From Escherichia coli (lineage in GTDB: Bacteria; Pseudomonadota; Gammaproteobacteria; Enterobacterales; Enterobacteriaceae), in NCBI RefSeq assembly GCF_016903815.1, contig NZ_CP069973.1: 64,000 nt of DNA; one strand, written 5' to 3'. Below the pieces are notes generated by a model. That model searched no databases. It was not told the DNA's origin and saw only the letters and a program-made list of their open reading frames with translations. Below are positions 6,090 through 36,265 of this stretch, piece by piece (the stretch's first letter is position 1; every line of letters begins with the position of its first letter). The translations under genes and the position numbers were made by a program.

Positions 6090-7238
6090 ATGTCCACGTA
6101 TACCCGGCCTGTCATGCTTTTGCTGTCTGGCCTGCTTTTGTTGACTCTGGCGATCGCAGTGTTAAATACACTCGTACCGCTTTGGCTCGCCCAGGAACAC
6201 ATGTCCACATGGCAGGTAGGCGTTGTCAGCTCATCCTATTTTACCGGCAACCTGGTCGGTACATTGCTGACAGGGTATGTCATTAAGCGCATTGGCTTTA
6301 ACCGCAGCTATTATCTGGCCTCCTTCATTTTTGCCGCTGGCTGTGCCGGCCTTGGTCTAATGATTGGATTCTGGAGCTGGTTGGCTTGGCGTTTTGTCGC
6401 CGGCGTCGGCTGTGCCATGATTTGGGTGGTTGTTGAGAGCGCGCTGATGTGCAGTGGGACGTCACGTAACCGTGGGCGTTTGCTTGCTGCGTATATGATG
6501 GTTTATTACGTGGGAACGTTTTTAGGCCAGTTACTGGTCAGCAAAGTTTCAACCGAGCTGATGTCCGTATTGCCGTGGGTTACAGGTTTGACGTTGGCAG
6601 GGATCTTACCGTTGTTGTTTACGCGTGTGCTGAATCAGCAGGCTGAAAACCATGATGCGACGTCAATTACGTCAATGCTAAAACTCCGTCAGGCGCGGCT
6701 TGGCGTGAATGGCTGCATTATCTCAGGAATCGTTCTGGGATCTCTATATGGCCTGATGCCGCTGTACCTCAATCACAAAGGGGTGAGCAATGCCAGCATT
6801 GGTTTCTGGATGGCGGTACTGGTCAGTGCGGGTATCCTTGGACAATGGCCGATTGGACGTCTGGCGGATAAGTTTGGTCGACTGCTGGTGTTGCGTGTTC
6901 AGGTCTTTGTCGTCATTCTCGGCAGTATCGCGATGCTTAGCCAGGCGGCGATGGCCCCAGCGTTATTCATCCTCGGTGCCGCTGGCTTTACGCTATATCC
7001 GGTGGCGATGGCATGGGCTTGCGAGAAAGTTGAACATCATCAACTGGTGGCGATGAACCAGGCCTTACTGTTGAGCTATACCGTGGGAAGTCTGCTTGGC
7101 CCGTCATTTACTGCCATGCTAATGCAGAATTTCTCCGATAATTTATTGTTTATCATGATCGCCAGCGTATCGTTTATCTATTTGCTGATGCTGCTTCGCA
7201 ACGCCGGTCATACGCCGAAACCCGTTGCTCACGTGTAA
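6090..7238 (+). CDS. ycaD: MFS-family transporter
   Basis: 382 aa, about 12 predicted TM helices; synteny. Confidence 0.85.
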
Positions 7239-7447
7239 ATGAATTCAAGCAGAGTGTGAACTTACTGTTTCACACTCTGCTTTTTTGTTTCTTCTATCTG
7301 ACTTGCTTTATTCCAAATTTTATTCGTTTAAAAATAAAATGTGCAGCAGATTATAATTTTGCATTTCGCTATTTCCGCACTTCTTATTTGCCGCGCATAA
7401 TCCCTCGTTTTACAGATGCCCCTTTAATTTTGGCGAAGGATTTGTCT

Positions 7448-8878: not shown

Positions 8879-9044
8879 TTATTGTGGTCGGTGACGCTGA
8901 CTCTGGCAGATCTGACCCGTTTTTACATAATCGAGAAATGCGCGTAAGCCGCAGGACATATACTGGCGGTTTGGGTAATACATTTGGAAGCTGTGCTGTA
9001 AGGGCGTTAGAAATAGAGCTCTGAATTATTTATGCAGAGCGGAA

Positions 9045-9078
9045 TAAAAAAGCGGCAACTCAAAAAAGTTGCCGCTTT
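9045..9078. terminator. bidirectional terminator between ycaM and pflA
   Basis: Hairpin GCGGCAAC...GTTGCCGC flanked by A-run and T-run. Confidence 0.6.
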
Positions 9079-9087
9079 ACGGGGAAA

Positions 9088-9885
9088 TTAGAACATTACC
9101 TTATGACCGTACTGCTCAAGAATGCCTTTCACGCGTTCCATGGTCTCTTTCTTCGGTGGTTTAACACCATCAAGTTTGTATTCTTCACCCATCGCCACCC
9201 ATTTGTGTTTGCCAAGTTCGTGGTAGGGGAGAAGCTCGATTTTCTCAACGTTGCCCATATCACGGGTAAATTCACCGAGGCGATGCGCTGAATCGTCATC
9301 GTCAGACCAGCCTGGGACAACAACGTAGCGGATCCACACCTTCACATTTTTGTTCGCCAGATATTTGGCGAACTCCAGCGTGCGGTGGTTTGAAACTCCA
9401 ACCAGATTTTGGTGGATCTCGTCGTTCATCTGTTTGAGATCGAGCATTACCAGGTCGGTTACTTCCAGCAGTTCATCAATCACCGGATCGTAACGACGAA
9501 CAAAACCGTTGGTGTCCAGACAGGTATGAATGCCTTCTTTTTTGCAGGCGCGGAACCAGTCACGAACAAACTCAGCTTGCAGGATTGCTTCACCGCCGGA
9601 TGCGGTAACGCCGCCGCCGGAAGCGTTCATAAAGTGGCGATAGGTCACCACCTCTTTCATTAAATCTTCAACGGTAACTTCTTTACCGCCATGCGTGTCC
9701 CAGGTGTCGCGGTTATGACAATACAGGCAGCGCATCAGGCAGCCCTGGAAAAAGGTGATAAAGCGAATACCCGGGCCGTCTACGGTTCCACAGGATTCAA
9801 AGGAGTGAATGCGACCAATAACTGACTTGGTAGCCCCCGCCGCAGCGGTATTTTCTGTTGTATTACAATTAGTTAAATTACTCAT
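9088..9885 (-). CDS. pflA: pyruvate formate-lyase activating enzyme (radical SAM); 5' end rebuilt by prophage-derived sequence
   Basis: Radical-SAM CxxxCxxC motif (CLMRCLYC) and body of PflA from ...[22 protein letters not shown]; the first 20 codons ([20 protein letters not shown]) lie in prophage-side sequence upstream of the att core. Confidence 0.85.
9814..9826. repeat. attL core (13-bp direct repeat ACCAATAACTGAC)
   Basis: Identical 13-mer at 43269-43281 at the opposite prophage end; lies within pflA codons 2-5 (native numbering). Confidence 0.6.
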
Positions 9886-9916: not shown

Positions 9917-10912
9917 TTATGGACGCATTATGGACATTCCTGACACCGGGTTAAGAGTCACAGCATCTTGTAAGAAATCCGGTGCAAAGTGTGCGTAGGT
10001 CATAGTTTGCTGAATGTTAGAATGACCCAGGATGCGCTGCAATGTGATTATGTTACCTCCATTCATTATAAAATGTGTGGCAAATGTATGCCTCAAAACA
10101 TGCACTGCCTGTCCGTCAGGTAAATCGGGTTTTACTTCCCTGAGAGCGTTGCGCACTTTGTAGTAACTGGCATTAAAAAGCCTGCCTGAATTTTTGGTCT
10201 TGATCCGTTTAATCAGGTCCTGCGAAACGGGAATTGTCCTGCGCTTTCCGTTTTTAGTTTTCATAAACGTAACCATCTGGTTAATGATGTGTTCAGCTTT
10301 CAAATTAGACACTTCACTCCAGCGTCCACCAGTAGAAAGGCAGACCAGAGTTGCATTTAACTCATCACCATCAAGCATGGATAACAGCCGCGTAATCTCT
10401 TCACTGGACAAAAAAGCCATTTCCGTAACAGCTTCACGTAACCGCTTAACCTCACGGAACGGGTTGTGAGAGTGATATTCACCGGCGTCAATTAACTTGG
10501 TGAACATCCCGCTCATTATTGCCAGATGCCGATTTACGCTGGCTGGTTTTAGGCCATCGTTCATCATTACAACGCGATAATCAGTTATCGTTTTCTTTGT
10601 TAGCTGGTCCGCCCTGGACACTCCCATCTCGGCAAATTTGGCGATTATTGTCGTCAAACGCCCTCGTTCAATATCTCCACGCTCATGTGATTTTCCGTGA
10701 TATATCCACCATCTGCCTAACAACTCTGTAAGAGTTCGGCGGTCGGCCGGCTTCTCCAACCACTCTTTGTTGTGGTAGTTAACCAGGACATGACGTTCGA
10801 ATGCTTGAGCTTCACCTTTAGTTTTAAATTTCCGCCTGATACGTTTTCCATCTGCACCCTGCGGTCTGACGTCCACTTCATAACGACCATCATCGAGCTT
10901 TTTAATAGACAT
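9917..10912 (-). CDS. int: phage tyrosine integrase
   Basis: 331 aa; C-terminal catalytic region with HVLRHTFAT...GHSNIQQTMTYAHF (R-H-R-Y type); adjacent to att core. Confidence 0.9.
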   Translation of the reverse strand: MSIKKLDDGRYEVDVRPQGADGKRIRRKFKTKGEAQAFERHVLVNYHNKEWLEKPADRRTLTELLGRWWIYHGKSHERGDIERGRLTTIIAKFAEMGVSRADQLTKKTITDYRVVMMNDGLKPASVNRHLAIMSGMFTKLIDAGEYHSHNPFREVKRLREAVTEMAFLSSEEITRLLSMLDGDELNATLVCLSTGGRWSEVSNLKAEHIINQMVTFMKTKNGKRRTIPVSQDLIKRIKTKNSGRLFNASYYKVRNALREVKPDLPDGQAVHVLRHTFATHFIMNGGNIITLQRILGHSNIQQTMTYAHFAPDFLQDAVTLNPVSGMSIMRP

Positions 10913-11005
10913 AAAGCCCTCCGATGACGCTGTTTACTTCTACTACTTGAAAATTAATGCAATTTTCTTTCGTACATTTACTGCACACATATGCTGAATA
11001 AATCG

Positions 11006-11317
11006 TCAGCCAGTCTTTTGGTCTGAGTGGTGCAAGGTTGTTGAGTCTTGCCCAATGTGCGCGAGCGCCGGGGCTATTTGTCCGCCAGCGGGATCAGTTT
11101 CATCAAACATGAACCAGTCACGGTACTTGCGAAATCTTTCTGGCTTGAAAAATTTCATACCTGCGTCAAAAGACATCTTTACTTTTCCCTGCTCATATCC
11201 AGCATAGGTGTTGTAGTTAATTCCAGTTAATTCAGCAACTTGCTTCCTTGTCATTCTTTCTGATTCCCGAATAAGTGCGAGTTTCTCTGCTTGAGATGTG
11301 ATTTGTGTATTTGACAT
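11006..11317 (-). CDS. phage immunity repressor (P2 C-like, HTH)
   Basis: Small HTH protein (MTRKQVAELTGINYNTYAGYEQG) divergent from the early operon, next to int as in P2; start codon uncertain (11317 or 11365). Confidence 0.6.
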   Translation of the reverse strand: MSNTQITSQAEKLALIRESERMTRKQVAELTGINYNTYAGYEQGKVKMSFDAGMKFFKPERFRKYRDWFMFDETDPAGGQIAPALAHIGQDSTTLHHSDQKTG

Positions 11318-27953: not shown

Positions 27954-28383
27954 TGCCGTCACGGTGCTGAAAACCAGTCCCGAGATGCTGCGGATATTCG
28001 TGGATAACGGGAGTATTGCCTCCACGCTGGCGACGTCGCTGTCATTCGAAAAGCGTTACACGCTCAATGTCATTGTGACCGACTTTACCGGTGATTTTGA
28101 CCTGCTCATCGTGCCGGTGCTGGCGTGGCTGCGGGAAAATCAGCCCGACATCATGACCACCGACGAAGGCCAGAAAAAGGGCTTCACGTTTTATGCGGAC
28201 ATCAACAATGACAGCAGCTTTGATATCAGCATCAGCCTGATGCTGACCGAGCGCACGCTGGTCAGTGAGGTGGACGGCGCACTGCATGTGAAGAATATCC
28301 CGGAACCTCCGCCGCCGGAGCCGGTCACTCGCCCGATGGAGCTTTATATCAATGGCGAACTGGTGAGCAAGTGGGATGAATGA
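27916..28383 (+). CDS. tail completion protein (P2 gpR-like)
   Basis: 155 aa, size and position as P2 R. Confidence 0.7.
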   Translation: MLKPDSLRRALTDAVTVLKTSPEMLRIFVDNGSIASTLATSLSFEKRYTLNVIVTDFTGDFDLLIVPVLAWLRENQPDIMTTDEGQKKGFTFYADINNDSSFDISISLMLTERTLVSEVDGALHVKNIPEPPPPEPVTRPMELYINGELVSKWDE

Positions 28384-28828
28384 GTTTAAGCGTTTTGAAG
28401 ACCGGCTGACCGGGCTGATTGAATCACTGTCACCATCAGGGCGTCGGCGACTGAGCACCGAACTGGCGAAACATCTGCGGCAGAGTCAGCAGCGCCGGGT
28501 GATGGCACAGAAAGCCCCGGACGGCACACCCTACGCACCACGCCAGCAGCAGAGCGCCAGAAAAAAGACCGGTCGTGTTAAGCGAAAAATGTTTGCGAAA
28601 CTTATCACCAGTCGTTTTTTGCATATCCGCGCCAGCCCGGAACAGGCATCAATGGAGTTTTACGGCGGAAAGTCACCGAAAATCGCCAGTGTGCATCAGT
28701 TCGGTCTGTCGGAAGAAACCCGGAAAGACGGTAAGAAAATTGATTATCCGGCGCGTCCTCTGCTCGGCTTTACCGGTGAGGATGTGCAGATGATTGAAGA
28801 GATTATCCTGGCTCACCTTGAGCGTTAG
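28376..28828 (+). CDS. tail completion protein (P2 gpS-like)
   Basis: 150 aa, size and position as P2 S. Confidence 0.7.
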   Translation: MNEFKRFEDRLTGLIESLSPSGRRRLSTELAKHLRQSQQRRVMAQKAPDGTPYAPRQQQSARKKTGRVKRKMFAKLITSRFLHIRASPEQASMEFYGGKSPKIASVHQFGLSEETRKDGKKIDYPARPLLGFTGEDVQMIEEIILAHLER

Positions 28829-28857
28829 TTTTATCCAGGCAGAGGCTGATGCGCAAT

Positions 28858-28894
28858 TAAACATTGAGCGGCCATGCTGGTCGCTCAATGTTTA
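28858..28894. repeat. perfect 13-bp inverted repeat (TAAACATTGAGCG / CGCTCAATGTTTA) with 11-nt loop
   Basis: Read directly from the sequence; sits between convergent S and the cargo gene, so it could be a bidirectional terminator. Confidence 0.6.
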
Positions 28895-28899
28895 GAGGT

Positions 28900-29685
28900 T
28901 TATGAGTGATTTTTATTTGATGCTTTGTATTCTAAAACCTTCTTATTGGCGTAAAAGAATTTTGTATATGACAGGAATATAACCAGACCTGAAGTGAAAT
29001 AGACGAGGGATAGTATTAATAATGCTTTTTTGTGACTGTTATTGTCTTTAATCTCCTGGCTTAACCATTCGGAGTCCTCCTCGTTTAACTGTAAGAGCTT
29101 ATTGCAGGCGATCTCAGGAAGTGTGTCTTTTATAAATACGTTTTGCAGTCTCTTGCAATCGGCAAGGCTATAAGTTTTATTAAATTCAACTGCTTTATTT
29201 TTGAAGGATAAAAGAACTTTGTCACTATAAACATAGTACATCATGTTTTTATATGGTATGCCTATGGCATCCCTTACTATAACGGATTGTTCGTTGTGTA
29301 TGTAACATGCGAGGAGAATGTAAAAAATACTGGCCAGAATTACAATTATTGTTTTAATTACGTGTGGTGGTTTTGTTATGTCACCCCAGATGCGAGTAAG
29401 GAAAAAATACGATGTTTTTAGTTTTCCATCAATCAGTCCCTGCTGTATCATTCTCACATTTTCAATGCCTGATACATTGATTCCGTTAATTATTTTAAAT
29501 AGTTGAATGTCGCGCCACTCGCGGTCAAGTCTTTTTAATTTTTTGTCTGAATATCCAAAATTGAGATAATGTGCAATAAGCCTCATAAGGTTACTTTTAC
29601 CAAAGCTAAAAAATGCTAATACTGCAAAGCTACAAAGGAAAAAAACGATTAGCCCCCACACATTAGTCACATTATAGCTGACCAT
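28900..29685 (-). CDS. cargo membrane protein (three predicted TM helices), function unknown
   Basis: 261 aa, AT-rich, opposite orientation to flanking late genes, at the P2 orf30 variable position between S and V. Confidence 0.5.
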   Translation of the reverse strand: MVSYNVTNVWGLIVFFLCSFAVLAFFSFGKSNLMRLIAHYLNFGYSDKKLKRLDREWRDIQLFKIINGINVSGIENVRMIQQGLIDGKLKTSYFFLTRIWGDITKPPHVIKTIIVILASIFYILLACYIHNEQSVIVRDAIGIPYKNMMYYVYSDKVLLSFKNKAVEFNKTYSLADCKRLQNVFIKDTLPEIACNKLLQLNEEDSEWLSQEIKDNNSHKKALLILSLVYFTSGLVIFLSYTKFFYANKKVLEYKASNKNHS

Positions 29686-29768
29686 TACGCTCTCCTTGAA
29701 TGTTGTCTGGTAGTTCTACAAATGAATCCAGATAGCATAACTTTTATATATTGTGCAATCTCACATGC

Positions 29769-30404
29769 ATGAACACTCTCGCAAATATTCAGGAACTCGC
29801 GCGCGCACTGCGCAACATGATTCGCACCGGCATTATCGTCGAAACCGACCTTAACGCCGGTCGCTGCCGTGTGCAGACCGGCGGCATGTGCACCGACTGG
29901 CTTCAGTGGCTGACCCATCGTGCCGGACGTTCACGCACATGGTGGGCACCTTCCGTGGGGGAACAGGTGCTGATTCTGGCCGTGGGCGGTGAACTCGACA
30001 CGGCGTTCGTTCTGCCGGGGATTTATTCCGGCGATAACCCTCCGCCGTCTGCGTCGGCGGATGCCCTGCACATACGTTTCCCTGACGGGGCGGTGATTGA
30101 ATATGAACCCGAAACCAGTGCACTCACGGTAAGCGGAATTAAAACGGCCAGCGTGACGGCTTCTGATTCTGTTACTGCCACGGTGCCGGTGGTCATGGTG
30201 AAAGCATCAACCCGCGTCACCCTGGACACCCCGGAGGTGGTCTGCACCAACAGGCTGATTACCGGCACGCTGGAAGTGCAGAAGGGCGGGACGATGCGCG
30301 GCAACATTGAACACACCGGCGGTGAACTCTCATCAAACGGTAAGGTACTGCATACCCATAAACACCCCGGCGACAGCGGCGGCACAACCGGGAGTCCTTT
30401 ATGA
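29769..30404 (+). CDS. baseplate assembly protein V (spike)
   Basis: 211 aa from internal Met; gene order V-W-J-I as in P2. Confidence 0.75.
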   Translation: MNTLANIQELARALRNMIRTGIIVETDLNAGRCRVQTGGMCTDWLQWLTHRAGRSRTWWAPSVGEQVLILAVGGELDTAFVLPGIYSGDNPPPSASADALHIRFPDGAVIEYEPETSALTVSGIKTASVTASDSVTATVPVVMVKASTRVTLDTPEVVCTNRLITGTLEVQKGGTMRGNIEHTGGELSSNGKVLHTHKHPGDSGGTTGSPL

Positions 30405-32194: not shown

Positions 32195-34219
32195 ATGAGC
32201 ACAAAATTCAAAACCGTTATCACCACTGCCGGTGCAGCAAAGCTGGCAGCGGCAACCGCGCCGGGAGGGCGGAAGGTCAACATTACCACGATGGCCGTCG
32301 GGGATGGCGGTGGTAAATTGCCTGTCCCGGATGCCGGACAGACCGGGCTTATCCACGAAGTCTGGCGACATGCGCTGAACAAAATCAGCCAGGACAAACG
32401 AAACAGTAATTATATTATCGCAGAGCTGGTTATTCCGCCGGAGGTGGGCGGTTTCTGGATGCGTGAGCTTGGCCTGTACGATGATGCGGGAACGTTGATT
32501 GCCGTGGCGAACATGGCCGAAAGTTATAAGCCTGCCCTTGCCGAAGGCTCAGGGCGTTCGCAGACCTGCCGCATGGTCATCATCGTCAGCAGTGTGGCCT
32601 CAGTGGAGCTGACCATTGACACCACAACGGTGATGGCAACGCAGGATTATGTTGATGACAAAATTGCAGAACATGAACAGTCACGACGTCACCCTGACGC
32701 CTCGCTGACCGCAAAAGGTTTTACTCAGTTAAGCAGTGCGACCAACAGCACGTCTGAAACACTGGCTGCAACGCCAAAAGCCGTTAAGACGGTAATGGAT
32801 GAAACGAACAAGAAAGCGCCATTAAACAGCCCTGCACTGACCGGAACGCCAACGACGCCAACTGCGACAAAGGGGACTAATAATACTCAGATCGCAAACA
32901 CGGCTTTCGTTATGACCGCGATTGCCGCCCTTGTAGACTCGTCACCTGACGCACTGAATACGCTGAACGAGCTGGCAGCGGCGCTGGGTAACGACCCGAA
33001 TTTTGCTACCACCATGACTAATGCGCTTGCGGGTAAGCAACCGAAAGATGCTACCCTGACGGCGCTGGCGGGGCTTGCTACTGCGGCAGACAGGTTTCCG
33101 TATTTTACGGGGAATGATGTTGCCAGTCTGGCAACTCTGACAAAAGTCGGGCGGGATATTCTTGCGAAATCGACCGTTGCCGCCGTTATCGAATATCTCG
33201 GTTTACAGGAAACGGTAAACCGAGCCGGGAACGCCGTGCAAAAAAATGGCGATACCTTGTCCGGTGGACTTACTTTTGAAAACGACTCAATCCTTGCCTG
33301 GATTCGAAATACTGACTGGGCGAAGATTGGATTTAAAAATGATGCCGATGGTGACACTGATTCATACATGTGGTTTGAAGCAGGCGACAACGGCAATGAA
33401 TATTTCAAATGGAGAAGCCGCCAGAGCACCACAACAAAAGACCTGATGAATCTTAAATGGGATGCTTTGTATGTTCTTGTTAAAGCCCTTTTCAGCAGTG
33501 AAGTAAAAATATCGACAGTCAATGCACTGAGGATATTTAATTCATCTTTTGGTGCTATTTTTCGTCGTTCTGAAGAATGCCTGCATATCATCCCTACACG
33601 AGAGAATGAGGGAGAAAATGGTGATATAGGGCCACTACGCCCCTTTACGCTTAATCTCAGAACTGGTCGGATAAGCATGGGGCATGGTCTTGATGTTACA
33701 GGGGATATATTTGCAAAACGTTTTGCAATTAACAGTAGTACCGGCATGTGGATTCATATGCGTGACCAGAATGTTATTTTGGGACGCAATGCGGTATCCA
33801 CCGATGGTGCGCAGGCATTACTTCGTCAGGACCACGCTGATCGCAAATTTATGATTGGTGGACTGGGGAATAAGCAATTTGGCATCTACATGATTAATAA
33901 CTCAAGGACAGCCAATGGCACCGATGGTCAGGCGTACATGGACAACAATGGCAACTGGCTTTGTGGCTCGCAAGTTATTCCTGGCAACTATGGCAATTTT
34001 GATTCCAGATATGTGAAAGATGTTCGACTTGGTTCACAGCAATATTATGGAGTGAACAACTGGCAAACATGGAATTTCCAGTGCCCGTCAGGTCATGTAT
34101 TGTCTGGTATTAATGTTCAGGATACAGGGTCCAACTCTGCCGATAATATAGCGGGCGTTTATTACAGACCCGTTCAAAAGTATATAAATGGCACCTGGTA
34201 TAATGTAGCGAGCGTTTAA
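32195..34219 (+). CDS. tail fiber protein H
   Basis: 674 aa; conserved N-terminal baseplate-attachment region and Thr/Ala-rich repeats, divergent C-terminal receptor-binding part. Confidence 0.8.
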
Positions 34220-35038: not shown

Positions 35039-36265
35039 ATGTTACAGTTCAGCTTTGTATCAAATGACGTTGTTATGACTTACGACGGTGACAGCGGAGA
35101 ACAAATAATTTGGGTTTGGGAGAGTTTAAATAAATTTCAAACAGTATGCATTTCACGCATTTTTAACTTTCAACTCCAGGACTTGAGAAACCCACCGTCA
35201 ACCGTTCAGGATTTTAATGATTATGAATATTCCTTTAATTTTGGCACGCTTAATAATGAATACATAACAGTTCCGGGACGGATTCTAAGCATTAATCGAG
35301 ATGTCCTTATACATAAGTCCATCAAGCTTGAAAGGAAAGTATTTGCGTCAGAACGCAACGTCTCCATTTTTGGTCGGCTTTCAAAACTACTCGATCACAC
35401 TAATCCCATCATCATCGGAGGAGATAAGTCGGAAGCTATACCAAAAAGCGTATTCCAGGAGTTGCAAAGTAAATTCCCCAACACAGGGGAACTGGATCGC
35501 TATGCTAATGCAAGGGTTCACGCTATTCTCGCAGGTTATCTTGATGGTATGAAAGATGCTCGCGAACGGTATGAACATTACCTAAACAGAAAAACAGTGA
35601 TCAGAAAAACCGACAAACTGGATTTAGAAGTTTTAAATAAGCTCGAAATTGAGAAATATACACTCATAAGAGACATTATCCAGGATGCGTTGAATAACAA
35701 AACTAACTTGTCTGAAGATGACTGGCAGAGCCTGATGATACCCTTCATCACATTACTTTTTCCAAAATATATCAAGGTCCTCGAGAAGGTTAAAATTTTC
35801 GACTATTACTCTAATCCTTCGGCTAAAACAAATCGGTTTATAGACATTGCACTGGTGGATGCAAACGGCAACCTTGATATCATCGAAGTCAAAAAGCCGT
35901 TTGATGATAAGATCCTTCGCAAGACGCCCTATCGCGACAACTATATTCCTACATCAGAACTTAGCGGCGGTATTATGCAGGCTGAAAAGTATATTTTTCA
36001 TTTATCTAAATGGGGTGTTAAGGGTGAAAAAGAGCTTACGAATGCCTACAAGAATTCTCTGCCAGCGGGAATGTGTATTCGTATATCTAACCCAAAAGCC
36101 ATCATCATTGTCGGGCGCGATCAGATAGCGAACGGTAACATGACCGACGGTCAGTTGCTTGATTTTGAGATAATCAAACGTAAGTACGCCAACATGATAG
36201 ACATATTGACGTACGACGACCTGTTGCGTCGACTTAATAATACGATTGAAGCATTGAAAGGTTGA
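35039..36265 (+). CDS. cargo protein with C-terminal PD-(D/E)xK nuclease-like motif (possibly Shedu-like), function unknown
   Basis: 408 aa, AT-rich; motif RFIDIALVDANGNLDIIEVKKP (D...D...E-x-K) near residue 275-295; located at the P2 Z/fun variable position between G and FI. Confidence 0.5.
   Translation: MLQFSFVSNDVVMTYDGDSGEQIIWVWESLNKFQTVCISRIFNFQLQDLRNPPSTVQDFNDYEYSFNFGTLNNEYITVPGRILSINRDVLIHKSIKLERKVFASERNVSIFGRLSKLLDHTNPIIIGGDKSEAIPKSVFQELQSKFPNTGELDRYANARVHAILAGYLDGMKDARERYEHYLNRKTVIRKTDKLDLEVLNKLEIEKYTLIRDIIQDALNNKTNLSEDDWQSLMIPFITLLFPKYIKVLEKVKIFDYYSNPSAKTNRFIDIALVDANGNLDIIEVKKPFDDKILRKTPYRDNYIPTSELSGGIMQAEKYIFHLSKWGVKGEKELTNAYKNSLPAGMCIRISNPKAIIIVGRDQIANGNMTDGQLLDFEIIKRKYANMIDILTYDDLLRRLNNTIEALKG

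Follow-up and report, generated by a model that had tools for sequence, protein, structure and literature searches.

Bidirectional terminators between convergent genes of Escherichia coli were reportedly described by Ju et al. in 2019, phage morons are said to have been treated by Juhala et al. in 2000, and the original papers on genes R and S and on the baseplate genes and orf30 of bacteriophage P2 are reportedly those of Linderoth (1994) and Haggård-Ljungquist (1995). For convergent E. coli genes, a stem-loop was found to be needed for positioned bidirectional termination and collisions (Wang et al., bioRxiv 10.1101/2022.10.23.513370). By definition, morons bring along a promoter and a terminator for themselves (Cumby et al. 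2012, PMC3594210). Horizontally acquired genes are listed for three sites in P2, and orf30 occupies one of these (PMC3091744; see also PMC6823313). In the P2 record, the feature 9397..9433 is annotated as "putative rho-independent terminator for O operon" (GenBank AF063097). It corresponds to an inverted repeat, located at 28858-28894, in the stretch of 64,000 nucleotides of E. coli DNA that was analysed here (the window).

A P2-like prophage occupies the window between about 9.9 and 43.3 kb. A query of 301 nt surrounding the repeat showed 99.0% identity to phage P2 (AF063097/NC_001895), and all 37 nt of the repeat are identical between the window and P2 9397..9433, window coordinates being obtained by adding 19461 to those of P2. 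On the left of the repeat lies the gene that closes the late O operon, coding for the tail completion protein gpS (28376..28828, + strand; a 150-aa ORF that corresponds to P2 S CDS 8915..9367). On the right, and convergent with S, lies the nonessential orf30 (28900..29685, - strand; 261 aa). It is followed by the annotated activator (Ogr) binding site of the late promoter P_V (29700..29727, + strand, mapped from P2 10239..10266) and by the first gene of the V operon, coding for the baseplate spike gpV (29769..30404, + strand; P2 V CDS 10308..10943). By sequence, the repeat is an already annotated P2 feature, and its detection is an ordinary rediscovery; the hairpin has been part of the P2 reference annotation ever since the genome was deposited, which matters little by itself. 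What the comparison with relatives adds is that the hairpin travels with orf30 and that every alternative S–V spacer brings an analogue of its own. Most of the prophage is 96-98% identical to P2, the int/repressor region (9947-11084) shows just 66-69% identity, and a part of the tail-fibre gene H (about 33487-34175) has no P2 match either. Judged by such comparisons, the prophage is a heteroimmune relative of P2, not P2 itself.

Reading of the sequence bears out the perfect 13-bp inverted repeat, TAAACATTGAGCG-(11 nt)-CGCTCAATGTTTA, that the earlier note on this DNA had reported at 28858-28894. The left arm, TAAACATTGAGCG, occupies 28858-28870, the spacer, GCCATGCTGGT, 28871-28881, and the right arm, CGCTCAATGTTTA, 28882-28894. 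The 11-nt spacing of the arms is correct; taken as an unpaired loop it does not stand, since RNA folding places in it four further base pairs and a loop of 3 nt. An inverted-repeat search of the locus returned 17-nt arms of 94% complementarity with 3 nt between them. In the predicted RNA fold, the hairpin, the putative O operon terminator, extends over 28857..28895 (+ strand) as an 18-bp stem with the loop UGC; it consists of 13 perfect outer pairs, four inner pairs, one of which is G.U (28871/28881), and a terminal U.G pair (28857/28895). The folding energy is -24.8 kcal/mol for the + strand RNA compared with -20.3 for the - strand RNA, the former being more stable because its two G.U pairs are A.C mismatches on the - strand. 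The z-scores relative to dinucleotide shuffles are -5.9 (+) and -5.6 (-), and none of 200 shuffles folds as stably. The hairpin is intergenic, between the convergent genes S and orf30: the stop codon of gpS (28826-28828) precedes the start of the repeat by 29 nt, and that of the reverse-strand orf30 (28900-28902) lies 5 nt past its end.

The description of the repeat as unusually long was also justified. In 300 first-order Markov resamples of the window, searched for perfect arms of at least 13 bp with loops of 3-20 nt, the mean was 0.013 repeats per resample, and any such repeat was present in 4 of the 300. The 13-bp repeat is confirmed as real and not a chance occurrence. Only one other perfect inverted repeat of at least 13 bp is found in the window, at 7247-7282. 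Its 14-bp arms enclose an 8-nt loop and are followed by TTTTTTGTTTCTTC, and it lies in flanking host DNA, 9 nt past the stop of the ORF 6090-7238; on these features it is a canonical host intrinsic terminator, in contrast to the P2 hairpin. A further, 5-bp hairpin, GCTCA-CCT-TGAGC (28811-28823), located in the last S codons and followed by GTTAGTTTTA, was called by the terminator scan. It was rejected as a terminator, being probably a chance match whose stem is broken in relatives such as L005.

The hairpin lies within an AT-rich moron cassette of about 937 bp (28831..29768), which also holds orf30 and the promoter P_V in its P2 version, together with its activator site. Homology with orf30-less relatives ends at 28830-28833, 2-5 nt beyond the S stop, and restarts at 29769, exactly at the V ATG. 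The GC content is 0.33-0.38 in the cassette compared with 0.55-0.64 in its flanks, and the cassette takes the place of the 66-nt S–V spacer of empty-site relatives. Because the homology break, the GC shift and the comparison of S–V spacers all place it inside, the hairpin is, on this comparative evidence, part of the orf30 insert and not of the conserved backbone. The cassette, being extra DNA relative to close relatives and deviant in base composition, is of the moron type.

The product of orf30 had been called a membrane cargo protein, and the 261-aa ORF indeed has three predicted transmembrane segments. It is assigned to phrog_2407, of unknown function, and searches of Pfam and PADLOC gave no match. 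In a large protein collection, Orf30 forms only five clusters at 90% identity, and the sole distant relative (39% identity) comes from Enterobacter, outside the P2 context. Through this relative the donor of orf30 could not be traced, as another terminator is present past the stop of that gene. A consensus scan, which is crude, found no sigma-70-like site for orf30 on the - strand at 29686-29800. Among 54 distinct loci, the nucleotide diversity of orf30 climbs toward the 5' end, from 0.043 through 0.065 to 0.087, with a peak of 0.16 at 29626-29675; in the same loci the diversity of S, the hairpin, the P_V region and V is 0.003-0.034. Of the 463 E. coli genomes with orf30, the gene is 80-95% identical in 291 (80-90% in 39 and 90-95% in 252), and the identity of the hairpin segment nowhere falls below 95%. 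The N-terminal part of the Orf30 membrane protein may be diversifying or mosaic.

The distribution of the hairpin follows that of orf30. It is present in 72 of 72 IMG/VR orf30 loci with a readable region, and the 68-nt segment comprising spacer and hairpin was found at no less than 95% identity in 461 of 5426 complete E. coli genomes, orf30 itself being found in 463 of the 5426. Viral and genome collections were scanned with the 18-base core pattern CATTGAGCG-N11-CGCTCAATG. Beyond the P2 S–orf30 context, only unrelated matches were obtained (5 of 73 viral and 24 of 25 genome matches), and the remaining genome match comes from a Citrobacter assembly, at a locus of P2 type. Across the E. coli genomes and these collections, the hairpin occurs only together with orf30. 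A search of 28300-30000 against Rfam with a permissive threshold gave nothing above threshold. A microRNA-precursor model of Rfam that matched the hairpin on both strands (30 bits vs a gathering score of 80) was set aside as a generic hairpin match. A dispersed palindromic repeat, similar to REP or BIME elements, was also rejected, with one copy in the window and with the P2 S–orf30 context and unrelated matches as the only hits in the collections.

The S–V spacer varies among related prophages. Among 84 related loci, it is 66 nt long in 47 and 940 nt long, with orf30, in 28; in the remaining loci its length is 1040, 1256 or 1305 nt. One additional locus (L004) has a co-directional cargo gene. 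All five spacer classes of the 84 loci have a strong hairpin after S. Besides the P2 hairpin, these are GCCGCCGG-TATGAC-CCGGCGGC in the empty-site (66-nt) class, GGCCACGAT-AAAAT-ATCGTGGCC in the 1040-nt class, AAAAGGCC-AGTTATT-GGCCTTTT, a textbook two-way terminator, in the 1256-nt class, and GCTGCTGCCGG-TGCTTA-CCGGCAGCAG, followed by UCUUCUGUU, in the 1305-nt class. The hairpins of four classes (empty site, P2, 1040-nt and 1256-nt) are mutually unrelated, and the 1305-nt hairpin is apparently a diverged copy of the empty-site hairpin, in which a C-G pair has become U-A, a compensatory change. Where the cargo is AT-rich and on the reverse strand (four classes), the hairpin is flanked by the stop codons of S and of the cargo gene, and in three of these classes it is the stablest local fold of the entire spacer. 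The cargo of L004 starts 11 nt past S, which leaves no room for a hairpin, and the ancestral hairpin is placed after the cargo; this copy of the empty-site hairpin has two U.G wobbles that pair in the + strand RNA only. Both the compensatory change of the 1305-nt class and the wobbles of L004 support a constraint at the RNA level at this position. The occurrence of unrelated hairpins at the same position suggests that the constraint concerns position and structure, not sequence, and these positional analogues favour an element at transcript ends over a common site of recombination. The earlier note had proposed comparing related prophages, and had counted against its proposal the absence of the repeat from those with other cargo, combined with transcripts reading through it. 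Such prophages do lack this repeat, yet they have functional analogues in its place.

In the empty sites of L002, L005 and L084, the hairpin precedes the V start by about 13 nt and so lies in the expected P_V promoter region. The S–V slot itself is a small hotspot for cargo, where at least four more cassettes occur, each having a GC content of about 34% and a single hypothetical ORF (247-363 aa). These are found in L003/L111 (1040-nt), L106 (1256-nt), L081 (1305-nt) and L004, three being on the reverse strand and one co-directional. In phage R18C, a 741-bp ORF is present at the S–V site (PMC6823313). The other late cargo slot of P2 has the same layout, namely the V operon, a hairpin and the reverse-strand fun(Z). 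In the prophage studied here, the fun(Z) slot, between the tail-fibre gene G and FI, carries a Shedu SduA homologue (35039-36265, + strand; PADLOC SduA 1e-219; Pfam SduA_C), which, in contrast to fun(Z) of P2, has the orientation of the late genes. The old/tin slot of P2 corresponds to 16418-19139 of the window and also holds different cargo. On its + strand are genes for an HTH protein (PADLOC HTH_VI, 7e-30) and a reverse transcriptase (RT_VI, 1e-105; Pfam RVT_1), together suggestive of a type VI retron-like defence pair, and on its - strand a gene for a 454-aa FRG-domain protein that matches the candidate system PDC-S15 (9e-98). Such cargo fits the known P2 defence hotspot (PMC9122126).

The arrangement of the cassettes bears on another proposal of the earlier note, namely that the repeat is a protein-binding or recombination site marking the boundary of the cargo insertion. 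The palindrome would then act at the DNA level, either as an operator for a dimeric protein or as a cargo recombination site, comparable to the attC sites of integrons, at the S–V hotspot. It is long and near-perfect and lies beside the edge of a horizontally acquired cassette, and the 3' end of the cargo gene is accompanied by a hairpin in every reverse-strand S–V cassette, both of which would suit such a site. However, the homology break precedes the repeat by 25-28 nt on its left side and does not fall inside it, and no second copy is present at the right cassette boundary or elsewhere in the 64-kb window. The hairpins of the other cassettes are unrelated in sequence, and their backbone junctions differ. 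Of the ancestral spacer, the 1305-nt class retains the initial 25 nt with the hairpin and the 1040-nt class a degenerate copy, in both cases on the left. In L004 the ancestral spacer is found on the right instead, and in the P2 and 1256-nt classes it has been replaced altogether. The attC-like pattern of a site at the junction, shared among cassettes, is absent here. The core pattern, searched outside the P2 S–orf30 context, gave unrelated matches alone, and a palindrome that continues nearly unbroken to a 3-nt centre, with G.T positions, suits an RNA hairpin better than a pair of half-sites. The boundary-site proposal is not supported by this comparison, and we regard a DNA-level site as extremely unlikely. 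By analogy with attC, the 3' hairpins of S–V cargo might also be handles recognised by shape, used for the capture or swapping of cassettes between phages. This idea is weakened by the location of the junctions, which lie away from the hairpins and vary from class to class (five or six classes were examined), and almost no probability can be assigned to it.

As regards termination, the hairpin has a stable GC-rich stem-loop, with the core GAGCGGCCA/UGGUCGCUC, and it is located just 3' of the last stop of a transcription unit on either side (29 nt from S and 5 nt from orf30). The third feature of an intrinsic terminator, a U-run of about five or more in eight directly 3' of the stem, is absent. 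The tail beyond the full stem, GAGGUUUAUGAG (+) or AUUGCGCAUCAG (-), contains among its first eight bases three U residues on the + strand and two on the - strand; in the best register, UUUA comes after a stem of 13 bp, which is borderline. The hairpin was missed by the consensus terminator scan. Its terminator score is -3.0 (+) and -12.5 (-), compared with +18 to +40 for tQ, tV and ogr of P2, the score being an approximate one of the d'Aubenton-Carafa type, calculated with modern energy parameters, and a relative guide only. The convergent layout with one hairpin is present, but its flanks are just UAAA and UUUA and the scores of both strands are borderline. The empty-site and 1040-nt class hairpins are likewise devoid of good U-tracts. 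The bidirectional terminator insulating the cargo gene, which the earlier note had put forward, agrees with the P2 annotation and with the analogue hairpins in other S–V spacers; the lack of a canonical U-tract and the failure of the scan to detect it speak against this part of the proposal. No transcript 3'-end mapping of the site was found in the literature searched. Taken as a whole, these features describe the P2 hairpin as a non-canonical terminator candidate, with a long stem and a weak U-tract.

The same features could be explained if the hairpin protects or processes 3' ends, in the manner of REP-type palindromes, by blocking 3'-5' exonucleases and so fixing the stable ends of the mRNAs of S and orf30, and transcription is stopped further on by Rho or by polymerase collision. 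A very stable stem, a weak U-tract and a score below threshold would be expected in such a case; the 18-bp stem far exceeds the 6-10 bp of canonical P2 terminators, and the poor U-tracts of the empty-site and 1040-nt hairpins point in the same direction. However, the hairpin belongs to no dispersed repeat family, and its best register is borderline, not hopeless. A role in 3'-end protection also overlaps heavily with a role in termination, and sequence cannot separate the two. Protection with termination further downstream is considered possible but unlikely.

The variation within the stem was also considered. Among nine distinct variants from 72 loci, no pairs are altered on both sides, which is too little variation for covariation to be informative. 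In the nine variants, 97.5% of the cells are paired, four pairs vary to wobble on one side, three have a mismatched variant, and one variant has a 2-nt deletion. Four of the six variable stem sites favour pairing in the + strand and two in the - strand, a difference that is not significant. Conservation specific to the hairpin was not found when its diversity (0.026) was set against that of the S CDS (0.029) and of the adjacent 29-nt spacer (0.0025); since it is no lower than in S or the adjacent spacer, the conservation is not structure-specific. The absence of covariation and a conservation no greater than that of the flanks would fit a chance palindrome or a functionless relic from the donor of orf30. 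Nevertheless, only about 0.013 such repeats are expected per window, the hairpin fits exactly in the short gap between converging stops, analogous hairpins recur independently in other spacer classes, and it is kept at 95% identity or higher in 461 E. coli genomes while orf30 diverges. A chance or relic origin is, in our assessment, very unlikely.

The identity with the P2 feature, the position, the structure, the exclusive linkage to orf30 and the positional analogues are established by the comparisons above. In the explanation that we prefer and consider likely, the hairpin is an RNA stem-loop at the junction of the converging O operon and orf30, acting as a putative terminator. With a weak U-tract and no compensatory substitutions in the stem, the actual termination, its direction or directions and its efficiency are what we infer. 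In the proposed mechanism, two units would converge, the late O operon (O…R, S) being transcribed from left to right and the horizontally acquired orf30 from right to left. Polymerase arriving from either side would transcribe the palindrome, and the nascent RNA would fold through the GC-rich core GAGCGGCCA/UGGUCGCUC and the extension UAAACAUU/AAUGUUUA, with a stop or pause at a short U-rich stretch, UUUAGAGGUUUAU on the + strand and UUUAAUU on the - strand. Late transcription would be kept from running antisense across orf30, and orf30 transcription would be kept from entering S, R and the lysis genes in antisense orientation. Both mRNAs would end in a 3' hairpin resistant to exonucleases. 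It is proposed that the hairpin arrived with the orf30 insert and took over the role of the post-S hairpin of empty-site relatives. This may be of use in the engineering of P2 as a delivery chassis and in modelling how cargo is insulated from late operons, and the site is a handy test case for termination between convergent genes that does not involve a strong U-tract.

Among known systems, the closest is the P2 feature at 9397..9433, with the same 37 nt and the same neighbours (gpS, the reverse-strand orf30, the P_V activator site and gpV). The window copy differs in its location in a heteroimmune prophage, with int/C 66-68% identical and other cargo at the old/tin and fun(Z) slots. The tQ, V-operon and ogr/F-operon terminators of P2 are, similar to the hairpin, GC-rich stem-loops in the gap that ends a late operon, and that of the V operon also faces a reverse-strand cargo gene, fun(Z). 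These canonical terminators have stems of 6-10 bp followed by U-runs (TTTTTT, TTTTTGTTTTTT, TTTTTTGT), whereas the hairpin has 18 bp and UUUA only. The bidirectional terminators of E. coli share with it a single symmetric hairpin between converging stops, with A-rich 5' and U-rich 3' flanks (UAAA…UUUA), but the A and U flanks of the hairpin are just 3 nt long. In addition, a late operon and prophage cargo may rarely be co-transcribed, and collision-assisted termination may not apply to them. Phage morons (PMC3594210), similar to the cassette, are extra DNA of deviant GC content between late genes; the cassette is antisense and has a terminator-like hairpin, and, unlike in morons, no promoter of orf30 was identified by the scan. 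Another difference from ordinary morons is that the orf30 cassette must also supply the essential late promoter P_V.
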